A stretch of DNA of 64,000 nucleotides from an uncultured virus (IMG/VR IMGVR_UViG_2585427945_000001) (Duplodnaviria; Heunggongvirae; Uroviricota; Caudoviricetes). Every line of letters starts with the position of its first letter. The first letter of the stretch is position 1. Of the stretch, positions 2,963-13,945 are shown in pieces. Made by a program: the position numbers and the translations under genes. The notes below the pieces were generated by a model. That model ran no database searches. It saw only the letters and a program-made list of their open reading frames with translations, and was not told the origin of the DNA. The DNA lies in IMG/VR virus record IMGVR_UViG_2585427945_000001; one strand, 5' to 3'.

Positions 2963-5833
2963 TTACTTGCCGTGCTTCTGCCGGAAGCGCTCAGCTCCGG
3001 TCGCGACCGACGAGCCTCCGCCGACGTCGGATCCGCGGTCTCCGCCAACCCGGTAGGTTCCGGTGGCGCCCGTGGGAGCGAAGTCCTTCAGCAGCGCGTC
3101 TGCGTCCGCCTCCAGCTCCTCCTTCGTGGAGCCCTGGAGACGCGCGGCCTGCGTGGTGGTGAGGCTCTTCGCGATGGCGACTTCGAGAAGCAGCGCCCTA
3201 CGGACCGCTGCGTCGGCCTCCGCGCGAGCGGTAGCGGCGGCTGCCTCTGCGGTCGCCTTCTCGGCCTGGACCCGCTCGGTCTCGGTGAGGTCGGCGCCTG
3301 GCGCCTCTTCAGCTCCTCGTCGGCCTGGCGCAGTCGCTCCAGCTCCGTGGCGTCCGGGGCGGCCTTCGAGGCTGCCTCATGCTTGCGGGCGTGGTGCTTC
3401 CAGTACGCCACCTGGTGTTCGGGCGTCATGTCGGCCGTCGGCGTGTTGTCCGGGTAGCCGTGCTCGTTGACGGTCGGGAGGTTCTCAGGCTCAGGCATTG
3501 GTGGGGTCCCCTGTCGGGAGTCGTCAGCCCGTGGCGGGCGTCAGGTCGGAAGACGGATGTCATCGGGGCCGGTGAAGCGCTGGCCCTTGAAGCCCAGAAC
3601 GGGCCCGATCTCGCCGTGGTCGTTGGCGATAATGATCTTGCGGTAGTCCACCGCGCGGCCTCCGCGGTCGAAGGTGCCGAGCGCGTCCTCCACGGCATCG
3701 TGGATGCGTTCGAGCTTCTCTTCGTCGATGACCTGGCCGGGGTCCTCGTCGGCTGTCACCAGCTTCACGAGGCAGTCACACCCGGGATGGATCGGCGCTA
3801 GGTCGCGCTTGTGGTAGCGCTGGGTGGAGGCGATCATGCAGAGGCGCAGTCGTACTCGCCCTGTAGTTCTCGGACGGTGTACGAGAAGCGAGGCATGTCG
3901 TCCCCACCTCTCGCACAGTGTGGTCCGGGCTAGCTGTAGATCCGTCTTGGCGATGGTTTCCAGCCGGTGCGTACCGCGGGCCAAGGCGGCGTCGAAAGCG
4001 ACGTCCTTGTCCAACGCGGCCCAAACCTCGGCGAACGGGCGCCGGTAGACGGTCTCAGATCGACGTCGCGTAGCGCGCGTCCGGTCACCCTGTCAAAGTC
4101 CAGGTCCGTCCGCGGTGCTCGCCCGTCGACCTCGCGGTACAACTGCTCCAGGTACGACGCCGTGAGAGCGGCGACCTGCCGCTGACCACCAAGAAGCACC
4201 GGCAGAGTAGTGCGCTCGAAGCGCCGCACGTCGGCATCACGCCACGAGCCGAGACCGGACCATGCGCGAGTGGTACGACCGAGGGTCGTCCTCCACACGC
4301 TCTGCACTGCGGCGCCGTACTTGCCGGTCAAGCCGCGTCAGGGACATCGTCCTCCTCGCGGGTGATCAGCGTTCGGAGTCGCGCTTGCCTGGAGGGACGC
4401 CGGCTCGGGATCCGTGTCGGGCACGGCGTTCAGGGCGTCAGCCGCGCGGTCGATCTCCATGCGGGAGATCTGCGACGGGTGTAGCCCATGTCCTCCATGC
4501 GCTGCCGCCACGGGACGCCGGCCGAAGCCTTCTTGACGGCTGCGTCCGCGAGTTCCGAGACGGTGCGGGACTCGGGGTCACGCCAGATGGTCTCAGCGCT
4601 CCATGTCGTGGCGCGCTCGTCGTCGCCCAGGACCCGGAAGGCCATGCGCATGACGCTCTCCCATGACTCGCCGTACGCACGTTGACGGTCGCGCACCTTG
4701 CTGATGAGTCCGGTTTCCGCAGCTTTCAGCGCGTCGCCGGAGACGTTCACAACGGCGCCGATCAGGTAATGCGGAGGTGTGCGGCTGATTGCGGCCAGAT
4801 CCTGCACGGCGGCAGTCACGGCGCGCACGTAGGGAGCTAGGTCCGTAGCCGCGAACTCCCCAAAACGGACGTCGGGGTTGTCGGTCGTCCAGAGCTTGCG
4901 GATGTCTAGCTGGAAGGGCTGGATCGCTGCCCCGGTGATCGGGTCCTCGTCGACCTCCAGGCCGGCGGCGTACCGCTGTCGGAAGGCGCCGTACTTCATG
5001 GCGGCAATGAGGTTGATCAGCGAGAGGTTGATGCGGTTCTGGATCGAGAGGACGTCCTCGTGCTCCGCGAACCCTTCCGGCCGACGGTTTCGACGGTTGA
5101 TGAAGGGAACGAGGGGCACCACGCCCAGCTCGTTCACACGGTAGCCGTCGGGCAGGTTCGGAAGCGCCAGGGCGTCCCACCCACGAAGCTCCGCAGCGCG
5201 ACCGGAGAAAGCCGGGTTGCCAGTCTTCGTGGTGAACTCGTGCACCCCCGTCGGCGTCCAAAGCGTCGCCCGGGTGTTCCCGGTCCAGTCATCACGCCAG
5301 AGCTTCAGTCCGGCAGCCAGCTTGCGCCGATTGCCCTGCTCATGTTCGACAGCCACCTGCGTGGGTGTCTCATGAGTCAGCACAGGCCGCCCGTCGTCGC
5401 CCTTCTCCACGAGGACGAACGCACGCCGCTGAGACATGGCGCCGTAGTGCACCAGGGCGGAATCAGCATCCATGCTGTTCTCCTGCCAGATGCGGTTGGC
5501 CTCCCGGTCTGCCACACGAGCATCGTCAGGGGAGTCCCGGTCTGCATCGTCGAACCGGAAGCCGTCAACCCCCAGCCGCTCGCCGGGGCTGTCGATGACG
5601 AGACTGAGCCAGTTGGTGCGGGCGTCCCGCATCCACTCCGAAATCTCGCGCGGATCAACGCCCGGAACGTGTGGCAGCTTCGGCTTCCCCTCTGCGGCCT
5701 TCCGGAGGGAAGTGAGCCCTGGGGTGACCTCGTTGTCGTCGTCGATGCTGTCCTTGCGCTCGTCCAGCATCCTCTTGCCTAGCCGCTGGAGCCACCATCC
5801 CGGGGATTCCGGAACCTGTGCGTCAACCGGCAT
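2963..5833 (-). other. Scaffold, minor capsid and portal genes, copy 1, frameshifted by probable sequencing indels
   Basis: Same DNA as 59152-62028 but with small indels that split or truncate the ORFs. Confidence 0.85.
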
Positions 5834-9401: not shown

Positions 9402-9841
9402 CGAAGGTGCGCAGTCATGACGTTGGCCATCGTGTGCGACCCACCTCTGCTCAGTGGTACTACGTGGTCAACGCTGGCACTCTCGGGGTCAGGCCACGCA
9501 GCAGCAGCGTCCACGGGGCCGTTACATAGAGAGCACGTCCATGCGTCACGCACGAACACCTCGACGGCACGTACGGTCTCGCTCTCCACACCCATCTTGC
9601 GAGCCCTGCGCCGCTGATCCGCGGCCTTGGTCGCCTCCGGGTACAGCTCCCGCACACTCCCGTGCTCTGCCCAGTACGCCCGCAGGTAGGCCGCATGTCG
9701 GTCCTTGGTCCGCTGCCGATACGCCACCAGCCGGCCGTCTGCTGCCCGGCGCTTGTTGTACGCGCGCTGCTGGCACAGTTCGGTGCAGTACTTCGCTCGG
9801 GCACGGTCGTGGGGCGAACCGCAGTGCGCACAGAGCTTCAC
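9362..9841 (-). CDS. HNH endonuclease with N-terminal Zn finger
   Basis: RDAWTCSLC...SVDHVVPLSRGGSHTMANVMTAHLRCN. Confidence 0.9.
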   Translation of the reverse strand: MKLCAHCGSPHDRARAKYCTELCQQRAYNKRRAADGRLVAYRQRTKDRHAAYLRAYWAEHGSVRELYPEATKAADQRRRARKMGVESETVRAVEVFVRDAWTCSLCNGPVDAAAAWPDPESASVDHVVPLSRGGSHTMANVMTAHLRCNLRKGNRMEAA

Positions 9842-9921
9842 ATCTACTCCAAGGGATGGCGAAGGCCCCGACGCCTTGGAACGTCAGGGCCCTCTTCCCG
9901 CGGGGATCAACCGCGGGCGAC

Positions 9922-10221
9922 TCAGTCGCCCAGCGCGGGGTGCGTGGGCGGTTCTCGGTGCACGGACGGACGCGATCGAGCCGCGTTACCTTCCGCAGAT
10001 GACTTGCGCTGGTGGTGCCAGGGACACAAGAGGCGTAGATTCGCCTCTCTGTGGTCATCTCCGGGCTCTATGTGGTCCACGTCGGTACCAGGTAGCTCGC
10101 ACCGCCTGTCGTCGCTGTAGAGGGCCGTACAGCGCCCCTCGTCACGCCGGATGATGCGACGTCGGATGGCGGGCCAGTTCTTCGGCAGGCGGCTTCTGCG
10201 GGTACTTCCAGCCCAGCTCAT
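9922..10221 (-). CDS. Small HNH endonuclease (packaging-associated type)
   Basis: W..IRRRIIRRD..C...TDVDHIEPGDDH..ANLRLLCPWHH; lies near the packaging genes. Confidence 0.9.
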   Translation of the reverse strand: MSWAGSTRRSRLPKNWPAIRRRIIRRDEGRCTALYSDDRRCELPGTDVDHIEPGDDHREANLRLLCPWHHQRKSSAEGNAARSRPSVHREPPTHPALGD

Positions 10222-10261
10222 TCCGCCTCCATGCTCTGGTCGTTGGCCGTATGCTCACGGC

Positions 10262-10513
10262 ATGCTGAAGAAGTTCCTGGCCGCCCGCGGATACGGGGCG
10301 ATAGACGATCTGGCCCGGCTCGCGTACAAGCGGGGCGACGCGATCTTCACGAACAAGTTCCATCCGCGTCCGACGAAGAACGACACCGACCTGGCGCTGG
10401 CCATCGCCGACGTCGAAGCAGTCGGCTGGGTACTGGTCAACCAGCAGGCAGAGGGTGAGGGGCTGACGCGCTTCGTCAGCCTGACGTTCCGCCGGCGCGA
10501 GGACGGCGTCTGA
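10262..10513 (+). CDS. Hypothetical protein on the opposite strand (moron-like)
   Basis: 83 aa ORF with GC3-biased codons, followed by a hairpin at about 10521-10559. Confidence 0.65.
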   Translation: MLKKFLAARGYGAIDDLARLAYKRGDAIFTNKFHPRPTKNDTDLALAIADVEAVGWVLVNQQAEGEGLTRFVSLTFRRREDGV

Positions 10514-10520
10514 AATAGCT

Positions 10521-10559
10521 CAGCCCCGCTCAGGGGATCGCTCCTCCCTGGCGGGGCTG
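10521..10559. terminator. Hairpin between the + ORF and the tRNA cluster
   Basis: Inverted repeat cagccccgc...gcggggctg. Confidence 0.55.
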
Positions 10560-10567
10560 CGTCTGTG

Positions 10568-10642
10568 TCGGGACAGCAGGATTCGAACCTGCGGCCCTCC
10601 GCTCCCAAAGCGGATGCGCTAACCAAGCTGCGCCATGTCCCG
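10568..10642 (-). tRNA. tRNA-Pro(UGG)
   Basis: Cloverleaf CGGGACA...UGUCCCG-A; anticodon arm UCCGC-UUUGGGA-GCGGA; T-loop GGUUCGAAUCC. Confidence 0.95.
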
Positions 10643-10718
10643 TGGAGCCCCGGCGACGTCAGCGAGTGGGCATACGGACAGAATCCGTCGTCGCTCTCGC
10701 AGAGCGGTCCACCGGGGC
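10643..10718 (-). ncRNA. 76-nt tRNA-sized, CCA-ended non-canonical structured RNA
   Basis: GCCCCGG/CCGGGGC stem followed by UCCA; internal hairpins CGCUC/GAGCG and ACGGA/UCCGU; no T-loop; sits between tRNA-Ser and tRNA-Pro. Confidence 0.55.
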
Positions 10719-10721
10719 TTG

Positions 10722-10804
10722 CGGAAGGTGGAGGAGTCGAACCTCCAACGGGTTGCCCCGTGACGCTTTTCGAGAGCGCTTGGCGTGCCAATGCCCAACC
10801 TTCC
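10722..10804 (-). tRNA. tRNA-Ser(CGA)
   Basis: GGAAGGU/ACCUUCC-G acceptor; anticodon loop CUCGAAA; long variable arm; GGUUCGACUCC. Confidence 0.9.
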
Positions 10805-10900
10805 AACGCGTGGGTGTCTCGGCCTGCCAGCGGCGTCAACTAACTGCCTGCCCACGCTCAGGCGTCCCGGCTTTCAATGCGTCTGGCACGCTACGGGCAG

Positions 10901-10972
10901 CTCCCCACCGAGGATTCGAACCTCGTCCTCCAGGTCCAGGGCCTGGCGTGCTGCCGATTAGACCAGCGGGGA
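10901..10972 (-). tRNA. tRNA-Gln(CUG), atypical C33
   Basis: UCCCCGC/GUGGGGA-G acceptor; anticodon arm CCAGG-CCCUGGA-CCUGG; GGUUCGAAUCC. Confidence 0.88.
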
Positions 10973-10977
10973 TCAAG

Positions 10978-11049
10978 CTGACGTGGCAGGGTTCGAACCT
11001 GCGACCCGCGGATTAACAATCCGCTGCTCTGCCACTGAGCTACACGTCA
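10978..11049 (-). tRNA. tRNA-Asn(GUU)
   Basis: UGACGUG/CACGUCA-G acceptor; GCGGA-UUGUUAA-UCCGC; T-loop present. Confidence 0.95.
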
Positions 11050-11170
11050 AGGATGCTGTCCGGGTCCCGCCGTCGGACAGCGCTGCGGAGGGTCGCCCAG
11101 GGTGCGTATCCCTTGCTCGTCCGCTACATCGGCCGCGCGCTAGCTAGTCGCAGCACGGGACGGCCCTACG

Positions 11171-11242
11171 TACCCCCACGGAGACTCGAACTCCGTTCCC
11201 CGGGGCGAAAACCCGGTGTCCTAGCCCATGGACGATGGGGGC
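11171..11242 (-). tRNA. tRNA-Glu(UUC)
   Basis: GCCCCCA/UGGGGGU-A acceptor; CCGGG-UUUUCGC-CCCGG; T-loop present. Confidence 0.92.
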
Positions 11243-11247
11243 TTGCG

Positions 11248-11320
11248 TGTCCGTGGTGGGGATCGAACCCACGATCTTCAGGTTGAGAACCTGACGAGAT
11301 AACCGCTACTCCACACGGAC
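11248..11320 (-). tRNA. tRNA-Glu(CUC)
   Basis: GUCCGUG/CACGGAC-A acceptor; UCAGG-UUCUCAA-CCUGA; GGUUCGAUCCC. Confidence 0.88.
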
Positions 11321-11480
11321 AAGTGGCGTCGGCCGGCTGTGCTGAATGCCTCCAGGAAGACGACCGTCCGCCTCCCCGCCGTCCGTGGACGACGAGGTAC
11401 CGGGGAGCTACCCCGGTGACGACCCACCTGGCGTGCCAGGGCTGCGAGGAGCGCACTCCGCGGCGGTGCAAGGTCGTCAG

Positions 11481-11555
11481 TGGTCCTGGAAGGATTCGAA
11501 CCTCCGACGCCCGGGTTCGTAACCCGGTGCTCTATCCAGACTGAGCTACAAGACC
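11481..11555 (-). tRNA. tRNA-Arg(ACG)
   Basis: GGUCUUG/CAGGACC-A acceptor; CCGGG-UUACGAA-CCCGG; T-loop present. Confidence 0.95.
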
Positions 11556-11655
11556 TTGACGTCGCGAACCAGGGGTTCACCTGGGACCACGCCCTCTATG
11601 CGGCATCACGCGCTCTCACAATCCGCGCTCGCTTTCGAACCCTCCACACAGCTTG

Positions 11656-11726
11656 TCCCTCCGCCCGGAGTCGAACCGGGATCAGCGCGACCACAACGCG
11701 CGGCTCTGCCATTGAGCTACGAAAGG
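11656..11726 (-). tRNA. tRNA-His(GUG), lacking G-1/C73
   Basis: CCUUUCG/CGGAGGG-A acceptor; GCGCG-UUGUGGU-CGCGC; GGUUCGACUCC. Confidence 0.85.
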
Positions 11727-11985
11727 TGTGTGACGTCAGAGGCTGGCTCCCGGTCGCCAATCGGCGGGTCCGGCAGTGCGTGACGTCCTCCCCCGCCGAT
11801 ACAGGGACCGTTCCGGCTCGTGCGTCCGGGCAGTGTGATCGTCGGCGGGGAGTCTTGGACAGCCGGGGCGCTCAACCGCGCTCAACGCAGGAGGAGAGTT
11901 CCACGGAGCGCAGGAGCGCCACCGGCTGTCGGGGAGGGTCGGACGCCGCGCCATTCGCCGGCGTCGCGTTTTCCCTCCTACACTA

Positions 11986-12007
11986 GTTATGGAGGAAGTG
12001 TTTCACG
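11986..12007 (-). promoter_or_regulatory. Phage-specific promoter motif, short-spacer variant, upstream of the RNA array
   Basis: CGTGAAAC-N4-CCTCCATAAC, versus N14 in the other four copies. Confidence 0.6.
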
Positions 12008-12023
12008 GTAATGATCTTGGTCC

Positions 12024-12150
12024 GCCTCCTCCTCTCCGGGCCAGTCTGGACAGAAAGGCAAACTAGACCCCTATTTCTATCTCTTCCTAACGCGCGAAGG
12101 GTTAGATAGAAATAAGGGTCTAGTTCGTCAAATTGGCCAGACTGACCAGC
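12024..12150. repeat. 127-bp AT-rich imperfect palindrome, copy 1 (identical to 40247-40373)
   Basis: Base-by-base match to copy 2; inner arms aactagacccctatttctatct / agatagaaataagggtctagtt. Confidence 0.95.
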
Positions 12151-12322
12151 CTACCGCTACGCAAAGCGACCAACTACCGCCTACCGATCACTCCGTGGAG
12201 TTATCCACAGCCACCCTGTGGACGGCGGAGGGCTGCGGGCGACGAGGAGGTGGGCGACGAGGGCGGCGACGGGACGGGGTCCTGGGCCCGATATCCCGCC
12301 CAGTCTGTTACCAACCCGTTAT

Positions 12323-13945
12323 CTACAACCTTGCCTGGTAGGCCGCATCCTCCAGCGCATCGGCCTCCGGGTCGACGTGGATCCCGATCTCGAACGTCAG
12401 TCGCTCCTCAACCGGCGCTCTCCAGCGCTCAGGCGGCCACACAGTGACCCGCACACCCGCCTCCTGGAGCATGCTCCTGCGGGCCATGCGGTCGTGAGTT
12501 TCGTGCCAGTCGTCGGCCCAGGTGGTATCCAACTCGACGACCTTCTCCTGGGCGGGGACGACGGGGAGTCGCTCCAACTCCTCCAGCCGGTCGGAGCGTG
12601 CTTGCAACTGCTTCATCACGACGTCCGCGGCCGGCCCACGCAGGTGCCCCAGCCGGCTCGCCAGCTCTTCGACGTCGGCCGCCAGGTCCGCGATCTCCGC
12701 CCGGTGGTCGACGCCCGGCACCCGCACCACCTGCGTGCGGCGGAAGGGGCCCATGTGCGCGAGGAACTGCTCTTCCACGTACGCGTTGACGCCCGCGGCT
12801 TGGATGCTGAGCGCAGGTACCCCCTTGGCGTGCTGCTTGCCGTGGCAGCGGAACACCTCCTTCTTGACGCCCGCCCTGCTCCCCTTCTTCTCCCGGTACC
12901 AGTTGACGAACATGTTCTGCTCACAGACTCCGCAGACGAGAACACCCAGCAGCGGATGCCCGTCCTTGCGTCGTGGTGCGCTGCTGCCCGTGGCGAGTGT
13001 CTTGAGGGCGTCTTGCAGCCGGTACCACGTGTCGTCGTCAATGAGTGCCTCCCCCTGGAGTACCGGGGAGCCGTCTGCGTTGCGGACGACCGTGCCGTCC
13101 CGCTTGACGAGGTGCCCCCGCATGACCGGTGAGAGGAGCATGTCCCGTACGACGGTGAGCTGCCAGGTGCTCTCCGGGTCGGCCTTCCGGGGCGGCGTGG
13201 CGAGCATGGCCCGGTGGTTCTTCGGAGTGATGGCCTCCATCCCCTCCAGCCATCGCAGGATCTCGCTGTAGTTACGCCCGGCAATGGCACGGGCGACCAT
13301 GGAGCGGCGGATGTCCGCGGTGGACTTGGCGGGGTCCTCGGGGTCCTCGTGGACGAAGAGCCACCACCCCTCGTTGTCGTCGGCGAACGTTCGCCGACCC
13401 GGCTTGTAGCCGTAGGGGACGACGCCACCGGGCCACCTGCCGAGCGACTGGAGGTGCGCGGCGGCGCCCTGGTTGCGCTCCATGATGGTCTGGCCTTCGA
13501 GCTGAGCGGCGAAGGCGAGAATGAGCATGATGAGTTCGGACATGGGTGACGAGAAGTCAAGTTCCAGCTTGTCACCGCCAGGGCCCGACGCGAAGACGAG
13601 GCGCTTCCCGTGCTGTTTGGCGTAGCGGCCGAGATCGGCCATGTCCGCCATGGACCGTACCGCGCGGTCCATACGCTGCCAGATGAGGACGTCCCATTCG
13701 TCGGGGCGGTCCAGCCAGTAACGCAGCTCCTCACGCTCCCACGGAGTCGTCTTGAGGGCAGAGACGTCCAGGTCTTTCGCCCATCCGACGAACGTTCCGC
13801 CCATGCGGGTGCCGGTGGCCGTGACCGTCTCCTCCTGGACTTCCGGCGACGTCGACGCGTCGGTGTAGCGGCTGATCCGGAGGGCTCCAACGATGCGGAG
13901 CGCGTGGGCTGTTGAGTTCTCACGCCGTGGCGCGGGTAGGTTCAT
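12323..13945 (-). CDS. int: Large serine recombinase (integrase)
   Basis: Catalytic motif LRIS..S..SPEVQ, D.DVSA, WQRMDRAVR, recombinase domain, Zn ribbon LLGVLVCGVC and a coiled coil. Confidence 0.95.
   Translation of the reverse strand: MNLPAPRRENSTAHALRIVGALRISRYTDASTSPEVQEETVTATGTRMGGTFVGWAKDLDVSALKTTPWEREELRYWLDRPDEWDVLIWQRMDRAVRSMADMADLGRYAKQHGKRLVFASGPGGDKLELDFSSPMSELIMLILAFAAQLEGQTIMERNQGAAAHLQSLGRWPGGVVPYGYKPGRRTFADDNEGWWLFVHEDPEDPAKSTADIRRSMVARAIAGRNYSEILRWLEGMEAITPKNHRAMLATPPRKADPESTWQLTVVRDMLLSPVMRGHLVKRDGTVVRNADGSPVLQGEALIDDDTWYRLQDALKTLATGSSAPRRKDGHPLLGVLVCGVCEQNMFVNWYREKKGSRAGVKKEVFRCHGKQHAKGVPALSIQAAGVNAYVEEQFLAHMGPFRRTQVVRVPGVDHRAEIADLAADVEELASRLGHLRGPAADVVMKQLQARSDRLEELERLPVVPAQEKVVELDTTWADDWHETHDRMARRSMLQEAGVRVTVWPPERWRAPVEERLTFEIGIHVDPEADALEDAAYQARL

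Follow-up and report, generated by a model that had tools for sequence, protein, structure and literature searches.

In bacterial tRNA maturation, RNase Z or RNase P cuts a precursor transcript at the ends of the tRNAs of an array. Hairpins with NCCA are known model substrates of RNase P, and synthetic minihelices composed of an acceptor and a T stem are minimal substrates of RNase P, the CCA-adding enzyme and aminoacyl-tRNA synthetases. To our knowledge, minihelices have so far been a laboratory tool only. Phage T4 encodes two stable non-tRNA RNAs, species 1 and species 2, within its tRNA cluster, and both are matured by tRNA enzymes. A literature search at the level of titles and abstracts found no natural minihelices in phage tRNA arrays. 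A report on the toxSAS enzyme FaRel2 describes minihelices as efficient substrates and states that FaRel2 selects tRNA-Gly as well as tRNA-Thr via the acceptor pairs 1-72, 2-71, 4-69 and 5-68 (PMC11559606).

Here we describe a 76-nt element that lies among the tRNA genes of a phage. It is like T4 species 1 and 2 by this location, a likeness drawn from their description alone, while host and phage lineage differ. Its outer seven base pairs are built like those of a synthetic minihelix, as an acceptor stem to which N and CCA are attached, but it contains neither a T stem nor a T loop and continues instead as a 10-bp helix with irregular pairing beyond it. Unlike synthetic minihelices, it is natural and gene-encoded, and its CCA is not conserved across the family. 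With the tRNA pseudogenes of phage arrays, here of tRNA-Thr(CGU), the element shares the acceptor helix, U8, U73, CCA, the length and, for the window copy, the place next to tRNA-Pro that several tRNA-Thr(CGU) genes occupy. It differs from such pseudogenes in that its interior is unrelated or deleted rather than a mutated cloverleaf, and in that its helix is intact in seven of seven copies, which occupy different slots.

The window, the whole stretch of 64,000 nt analysed here, carries genes for a serine integrase, both terminase subunits (small and large), a portal protein, a major capsid protein, DNA polymerase A and a primase-like protein. At 85.6% identity, the best match to its large terminase is the one of Streptomyces phage Samy (the second-best match is below 50%), and both genomes have the same layout of integrase, tRNA array ending in tRNA-Pro, reverse ORF, HNH and cos; the window belongs to a temperate, Samy-like phage of Streptomyces. 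A terminase search of viral contigs yielded 76 related loci, 27 of which carry tRNAs; these arrays mostly end in Pro(UGG) and are very variable in content. In GenBank phages, blastn with 121 nt found no DNA match to the element, and the window's array as a whole matched generic tRNAs only. The Samy study reports that all four Samy tRNAs are induced upon prophage activation (PMC11302927).

ARAGORN calls eight tRNA genes in the window, all on the minus strand: His, Arg, Glu, Glu, Asn, Gln, Ser(CGA) and Pro(UGG). Rfam confirms seven of the eight at the gathering score and tRNA-Ser through its clan. We checked the tails of all eight, and the preliminary description was right that none encodes a full CCA; the bases after the discriminators are CAA, CTG, CGC, CGT, CTT, CTG, CAA and CAC. 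The fold of the 100 nt after tRNA-Pro contains a GC-rich hairpin (10521..10559) between the array and a convergent plus-strand ORF, which is likely the end of the array transcript. A consensus terminator scan did not call this hairpin, and a consensus promoter scan found no promoter. At the other end of the array, the gap to the integrase holds a near-perfect, comparatively AT-rich inverted repeat of ~100 nt (12039-12147, minus strand; 45–48% GC), also present in Samy (L138 ~4640-4760), which may be a regulatory or recombination site; its Rfam score as a plant miRNA hairpin is a chance family match.

The element occupies 10643..10718 on the minus strand. Read from 10718 to 10643, it consists of GCCCCGG, 58 interior bases, CCGGGGC, U and CCA. 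Its 5′ strand of seven bases (G1–G7) pairs with C66–C72 in a perfect terminal stem, which grows inward to ten pairs through U8·G65, G9-C64 and G10·U63; in both the MFE and the centroid fold, the helix strands are G1–G10 (10709..10718) and U63–C72 (10647..10656). The U73-like base and the encoded CCA (10643..10646) adjoin tRNA-Pro(UGG) (10568..10642), the last gene of the array, without a gap, A10643 touching the +1 position at 10642. Upstream, a CAA linker (10721-10719) connects the helix to G10722, the discriminator of tRNA-Ser(CGA) (10722..10804), and A10719 is predicted to pair with U73 as an eighth outer pair, A(−1)-U73. Sequence and fold of the minus strand thus bear out an extendable 7-bp terminal stem, a U discriminator and an encoded CCA, as first described. 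The 76 nt said to separate the two tRNAs hold when counted from the foot of the stem, whereas the interval from the tRNA-Ser discriminator to tRNA-Pro +1 is 79 nt.

The predicted fold is a rod of ten terminal pairs and an irregular inner hairpin, with a free energy of −40 kcal/mol (z −3.9) that none of 200 shuffles equals. By itself, the interior has z values of only −0.7 to −1.3, and shuffles confined to it fold equally well in 63 of 500 cases; the second hairpin alone has z −2.25 and is matched by 20 of 500 shuffles. The above-chance stability of the element comes wholly from its terminal helix. The two internal hairpins of the preliminary description are therefore not beyond chance, and they are not conserved in relatives. 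Among the six foldable inter-tRNA spacers of the window, the spacer with the element is the only one with pairing ends and has the most extreme z value.

We compared the element with the defining features of a tRNA. It possesses an acceptor stem of 7 bp (GCCCCGG/CCGGGGC) and a single discriminator, U73. A T arm with a GTTCRA-type loop would be expected in a tRNA; no such motif occurs in the element, and a model of tRNA-Thr introduced below skips the entire interior. An anticodon arm with a 5-bp stem, a 7-nt loop and U33 is likewise not present, and the only hairpin there has a loop of 3–5 nt. ARAGORN reports no tRNA in the element at default, relaxed, mitochondrial or intron settings, and Rfam returns no tRNA match to it at E ≤ 10 with either 1301 nt or 83 nt as query, the gathering cut-off being 29 bits. 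The element fails three of four defining tRNA features and cannot form a cloverleaf. Sequence, ARAGORN and Rfam thus agree with the earlier statement that it lacks a T-loop and a canonical anticodon arm. An armless or intron-bearing tRNA was considered and rejected on the empty ARAGORN relaxed, mitochondrial and intron modes, and the weak similarity that Rfam reports to TMV_UPD-PK1 (20.7 bits, where the cut-off is 33) was taken as chance.

Unusual tRNA genes do occur in the related arrays. Those called by ARAGORN in L025 (2003-2082), L015 (6168-6245), L035 (2419-2489), L056 (5548-5634) and L031 (3346-3413), where L numbers denote individual loci, include genes whose anticodon loops have 8 or 6 bases (anticodons given as ctgg, gt and at), a Pro(ggg) of 87 nt and a Leu(aag) of 68 nt; they are odd or decaying genes. 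A tRNA-like gene in L028 (652-765) combines acceptor stem, D arm, T arm (GGTTCGAATCC) and an encoded ACCA with ~40 extra bases in place of the anticodon loop, which could be an intron or insertion or mark a broken tRNA.

Homologues of the element were sought by pattern scans, by inspection downstream of tRNA-Ser and with a covariance model, R1, built from six copies, with which the window and 57 loci (946,712 bases) were scanned; the window copy scores 74.3 bits. Homologues are present in seven distinct phage sequences among the 58 sources, the window included. The window copy is the reference for a long form of 76 nt that ends in UCCA directly before tRNA-Pro. The L077 copy is also long (75 nt) and ends in UCCA, 1 nt before a Tyr-like sequence; relative to the window it carries G10A, which converts G·U to A-U, an altered hairpin loop, and A52G in an internal loop. 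A short form of 38 nt (34 nt plus UCCA) is found in L011, again directly before tRNA-Pro, and corresponds to an L077-like form minus exactly 38 nt between two CGCTC repeats. In the window, the segment absent from the short form lies at 10664..10701, with CGCTC direct repeats flanking the deletion. The L028 copy, also short, stands in another slot, before tRNA-His; it differs from L011 by three substitutions, one in the loop, one giving a C-G pair at position 8 and one at position 73, and its tail is CGUG. The L081 copy is short with three loop changes and ends in CUAC, and the L032 copy (57 nt) has a different inner hairpin and ends in CGAC; both precede tRNA-like sequences. The L005 copy (48 nt) has an unalignable interior and the tail C-CCA, 1 nt before a Tyr-like sequence. 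Its stem reads GCUCUGG/CCGGAGC, the helix being kept through a C-G to U-A change, and its −1/73 pair is G-C instead of A-U.

Common to all seven copies is only the terminal helix of ~10 bp, the interior being deleted (38 nt) or replaced; the ends are 80–100% identical among copies, and the interior is unalignable. All six variants folded, that is, all but L028, form closed hairpins. Conservation in relatives, which the preliminary description had named as a test of its stems, thus divides them: the terminal stem is kept in seven sequences, and the internal hairpins are deleted or replaced. Across ten pairs and six sequences, 96.7% of the cells are paired. The covariation that had been suggested as a check is not significant, with one pair changed on both sides, a value reached by 84 of 500 shuffles. 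The stem identity of the window, L011 and L077 carries no weight, because their flanking tRNAs are ~98–99% identical (1–2 differences). The helices of L032 and L081 are identical over 23 nt although their tRNA-Ser and terminase have diverged. This identity, the recurrence of the short form in a different slot in L028 and the pair change in L005 hint at either selection on the helix or recent transfer.

Contigs from four DNA sequencing runs (X1, X2, X4 and X6), which the alignment of copies leaves out, add further variation. A contig of X6 joins 10663 to 10702, the same 38-nt deletion, and there are copies with 84 (X6) or 172 (X1 and X2) extra letters between the element and tRNA-Pro. X4 carries one divergent filler with CAA instead of CCA. 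An interior 22-mer pattern gave no match in viral contigs. The pattern of the tRNA-Ser 3′ end plus CAAG found three already known contigs and nothing else in viral contigs, and its matches at 25 genome-contig and 28 metagenome-contig loci were all chance hits to unrelated sequence. L079, too, is a chance match and not a homologue.

The ends of the element point to a specific tRNA. We set its first 10 and last 11 positions against those of 98 tRNAs from related arrays. The ten tRNA-Thr(CGU) genes fill ten of the top 12 places, with 14–17 of 21 positions identical to the element, and the next isotype is Gln, with a mean of 12.8. Furthermore, U73 occurs in Thr alone among the compared isotypes, and TCCA is encoded by six of the ten Thr genes. 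A covariance model of these ten genes (R2), run without filters over 10400-12000, matches exactly 10643-10718 with 15.3 bits (E 0.005 for the 1.6 kb); the aligned parts are only the acceptor stem, U8, U73 and CCA, and 57 nt of interior are skipped where the model has 58 nt. When interior positions 11–45 are compared ungapped from the 5′ end, the top three tRNAs are all Thr (19, 19 and 17 of 35 identities), and 19 of 35 is reached by 2.35% of 2000 shuffles (P ~0.02); the identities cluster on the 3′ strand of the D stem, at position 26 and along the 5′ strand of the anticodon stem. The interior's 3′ half resembles no tRNA (83% of shuffles score equally well), and when the interior is compared globally and with gaps over its full length, the outcome is not above chance, its best score being reached by 69 of 200 shuffles. 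A tRNA-Thr ancestry would therefore rest mainly on ~21 terminal bases and a modest signal in the 5′ interior.

Gene order is a second line of comparison. In the arrays of seven relatives, no called tRNA stands closer upstream of tRNA-Pro than Thr(CGU). It lies directly next to Pro in L002 (gap of 3 nt) and L026 (5 nt), and in L022 the distance is 39 nt. At the junction, L002 reads ...GGGGC-U-CAAA|CGGGAC and the window ...GGGGC-U-CCA|CGGGAC; the order in L002 is module X-Thr-Pro, and in the window module X-Ser-element-Pro. The element is next to tRNA-Pro in the window and L011 and has other neighbours in L077, L005, L028, L032 and L081. Thr(CGU) is also present in one of the seven element-bearing sequences, L028. 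Further apparent remnants, read by eye, are a 5′-truncated Thr-like sequence in L029 and truncated Pro-like plus Tyr-like sequences in L077; ARAGORN calls none of them, and Rfam, run on L077 and the L005 contig, makes no Pro-like or Tyr-like call.

On these grounds, we read the element as a former tRNA-Thr(CGU) gene that has decayed to its acceptor helix and is probably excised as a by-product, with a rough probability of 0.55. It retains the 7-bp acceptor helix, U8, U73, CCA and the length of a tRNA; without a T arm and an anticodon loop, it cannot decode. This ancestry escaped the preliminary description. The tail of U73 and CCA needs no special explanation, because family tRNA-Thr(CGU) genes encode the same tail, and it was presumably inherited from the former gene and not specially added. 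Against a relic stands the uneven decay: ends kept and an unalignable interior are not what simple neutral erosion predicts.

The position of the element in the array makes its release as a discrete RNA plausible. It would be co-transcribed with the array as part of a precursor; a search of public sequencing runs for window positions 9500-12500 returned no RNA run. At tRNA-Ser, RNase Z or RNase P would cut, RNase Z after the discriminator, because tRNA-Ser lacks an encoded CCA, while cleavage by RNase P at tRNA-Pro +1 would leave exactly ...UCCA-3′OH. Together, the two cuts would free CAA-hairpin-UCCA, a stable hairpin with a 3′ CCA. RNase P might trim this product further, because NCCA hairpins are among its model substrates. 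If the element is a relic, the freed RNA would be a processing by-product, at most a structured spacer directly 5′ of the next tRNA.

Two observations leave room for functional readings: the helix has outlasted at least three independent interior rearrangements and occurs in different slots, and it always ends 3–7 nt before a tRNA or tRNA-like sequence. One such reading is a functional minihelix, in which the Thr-type acceptor stem and 3′ CCA are excised by tRNA-processing enzymes and act through the acceptor end, for example as a decoy for antiphage toxins directed at the acceptor stem or CCA, or as a ligand of the CCA-adding enzyme, ThrRS or EF-Tu. The geometry is right, with a 7-bp stem, N and CCA, and cleavage at tRNA-Pro +1 would expose the CCA; the closure of every folded variant is also in keeping with it. 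NCCA follows the helix in four of seven copies, the window, L077, L011 and L005, the last with its different stem, compensatory pair and G-C at −1/73. However, the tail is missing in L081, L032 and L028, the three UCCA copies (window, L077 and L011) are not independent, given their nearly identical flanking tRNAs, and the single double-sided pair change is not significant. The U73 and CCA appear inherited, a T stem-loop is lacking, and closed hairpins of related arrays have no enrichment of CCA after them (15 of 1185). Of the acceptor pairs read by FaRel2, the element shares G1-C72 and C2-G71, but its pairs 4-69 and 5-68 are C-G, unlike the G-C and Pu-Py determinants reported for this toxin. 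We regard a functional minihelix as rather unlikely. The decoy or mimic for acceptor-end toxins proposed in the preliminary description is weakened by the same two facts, the presence of CCA in only four of seven copies and the identity of the tail with that of family tRNA-Thr genes.

A bolder version holds that Samy-like phages turned a dead tRNA-Thr gene into a natural minihelix gene, excised with a ready-made CCA, that soaks up acceptor-end toxins or serves as a mark for RNase P, and that belongs to a wider class of NCCA hairpins; we consider it quite improbable. Candidate toxins could be toxSAS enzymes, which choose tRNA-Thr and tRNA-Gly by their acceptor stems, and nucleotidyltransferases of the MenT/AbiEii type.

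A separate hairpin family of these arrays, termed B, is represented in the window at 11856-11928 (minus strand), upstream of tRNA-His, in Samy (L138 ~4865-4935) and at 21 other loci. Its terminal helix is long, rich in GC and marked by compensatory changes, such as GGCGCUC/GAGCGCC versus ACCGCU/AGCGGU, and its interior holds an apparently invariant, anti-Shine-Dalgarno-like sequence, CUCUCCUCC. Rfam gives no match for this hairpin, and the Samy hypothetical ORF SAMYPH_95 starts inside it. Its tails vary: TCCA in seven of 23 copies, TTTTTG in two, and TCCT, TCCC, TTCA or TTTT in others. Selection for a UCCA tail in family B was considered and rejected, given the seven of 23 copies with TCCA and the fact that its U and C are part of a longer GAC...GUC stem.

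The second functional reading is a leader or punctuation hairpin: a helix a few bases 5′ of a tRNA would mimic an upstream tRNA for RNase P or, in a variant, shield the upstream tRNA from 3′ exonucleases, so that the helix matters and CCA and interior are incidental. Consistent with this, the helix is the sole conserved part, and in every context it ends 3–7 nt before a called tRNA or a tRNA-like sequence, namely Pro (window and L011), His (L028), Tyr-like (L077 and L005) or other tRNA-like sequences (L081 and L032). The tRNA-like partners, however, were read by eye, with no call by ARAGORN and none by Rfam (L077, L081 and the L005 contig). Of the 90 tRNAs of related arrays that do not directly follow another tRNA, 44 have a helix of 6 bp or more ending within 7 nt of +1, compared with 30 of 151 random control positions, the first count being inflated by shared ancestry and unannotated tRNA remnants; this array-wide count supports a leader hairpin about as much as a minihelix or decoy. 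Other conserved hairpins also lie just 5′ of tRNAs. A conserved 27-nt hairpin (GCUGUCCG...CGGACAGC) at 11055-11081 on the minus strand, 6 nt before tRNA-Asn, recurs directly 5′ of different tRNAs, in L040 (before Pro), L021 and Samy (before Leu), and appears to be another leader-hairpin module. Against such a role, the element is sporadic (seven matches among 58 sources), and Samy and most arrays lack it, their tRNA-Pro presumably being processed normally. We accordingly assign a low probability to a leader hairpin as well.

The tRNA-like sequences of L081 (~2540-2610) and L032 (~4920-4990), which directly follow CCA-less copies of the element, have a well-formed T arm (GACGGTTCGAGTCCGTC) and, in a CUGAUCA loop, the anticodon GAU, but no normal D arm; ARAGORN calls neither, and Rfam, run on L081, does not call the one there. 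Spacer modules are shuffled relative to tRNAs, the 95-nt spacer that precedes tRNA-Ser in the window standing before Thr in L002 and before Pro in L025. A spacer module of ~64 nt with a conserved interior, at approximately 11789-11852 (minus strand) in the window and also just before tRNA-Ser in L011, has a closing stem that changes on both strands between the two copies (CUCCCCGCCGA/UCGGCGGGGGAG against GCGCACCGUCGA/UCGGCGGUGCGC), which suggests a further structured unit that is not a tRNA.

Finally, the element, a GC-rich inverted repeat, could be an intrinsic terminator or act at the level of DNA as another palindrome, such as a recombination or att site. Its outer seven bases are the same on both strands, and the Thr model R2 also scores on the plus strand (11.4 bits). 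On neither strand, though, is the stem followed by a run of U, the terminator scan is empty at the element, and its UCCA is followed directly by tRNA-Pro on the same strand; the annotated att repeat of Samy lies upstream of the integrase, outside the tRNA array. A terminator or other DNA-level palindrome is very improbable.

Taken together, the element is tRNA-derived, with a conserved helix and without conservation of interior and CCA, and is most likely a relic. Phage tRNA arrays are now read as lists of tRNAs, and the remainder is ignored as spacer; the element illustrates that such 'spacer' can turn out to be a module of recognisable tRNA origin, one that keeps its acceptor helix as the rest changes. 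If the helices are only relics, they would be useful markers of the shuffling and decay of arrays and would account for hairpins overlooked by gene finders. Should they be produced and used, they would represent minihelices of natural origin and a new route by which phages reach acceptor-end enzymes and toxins.
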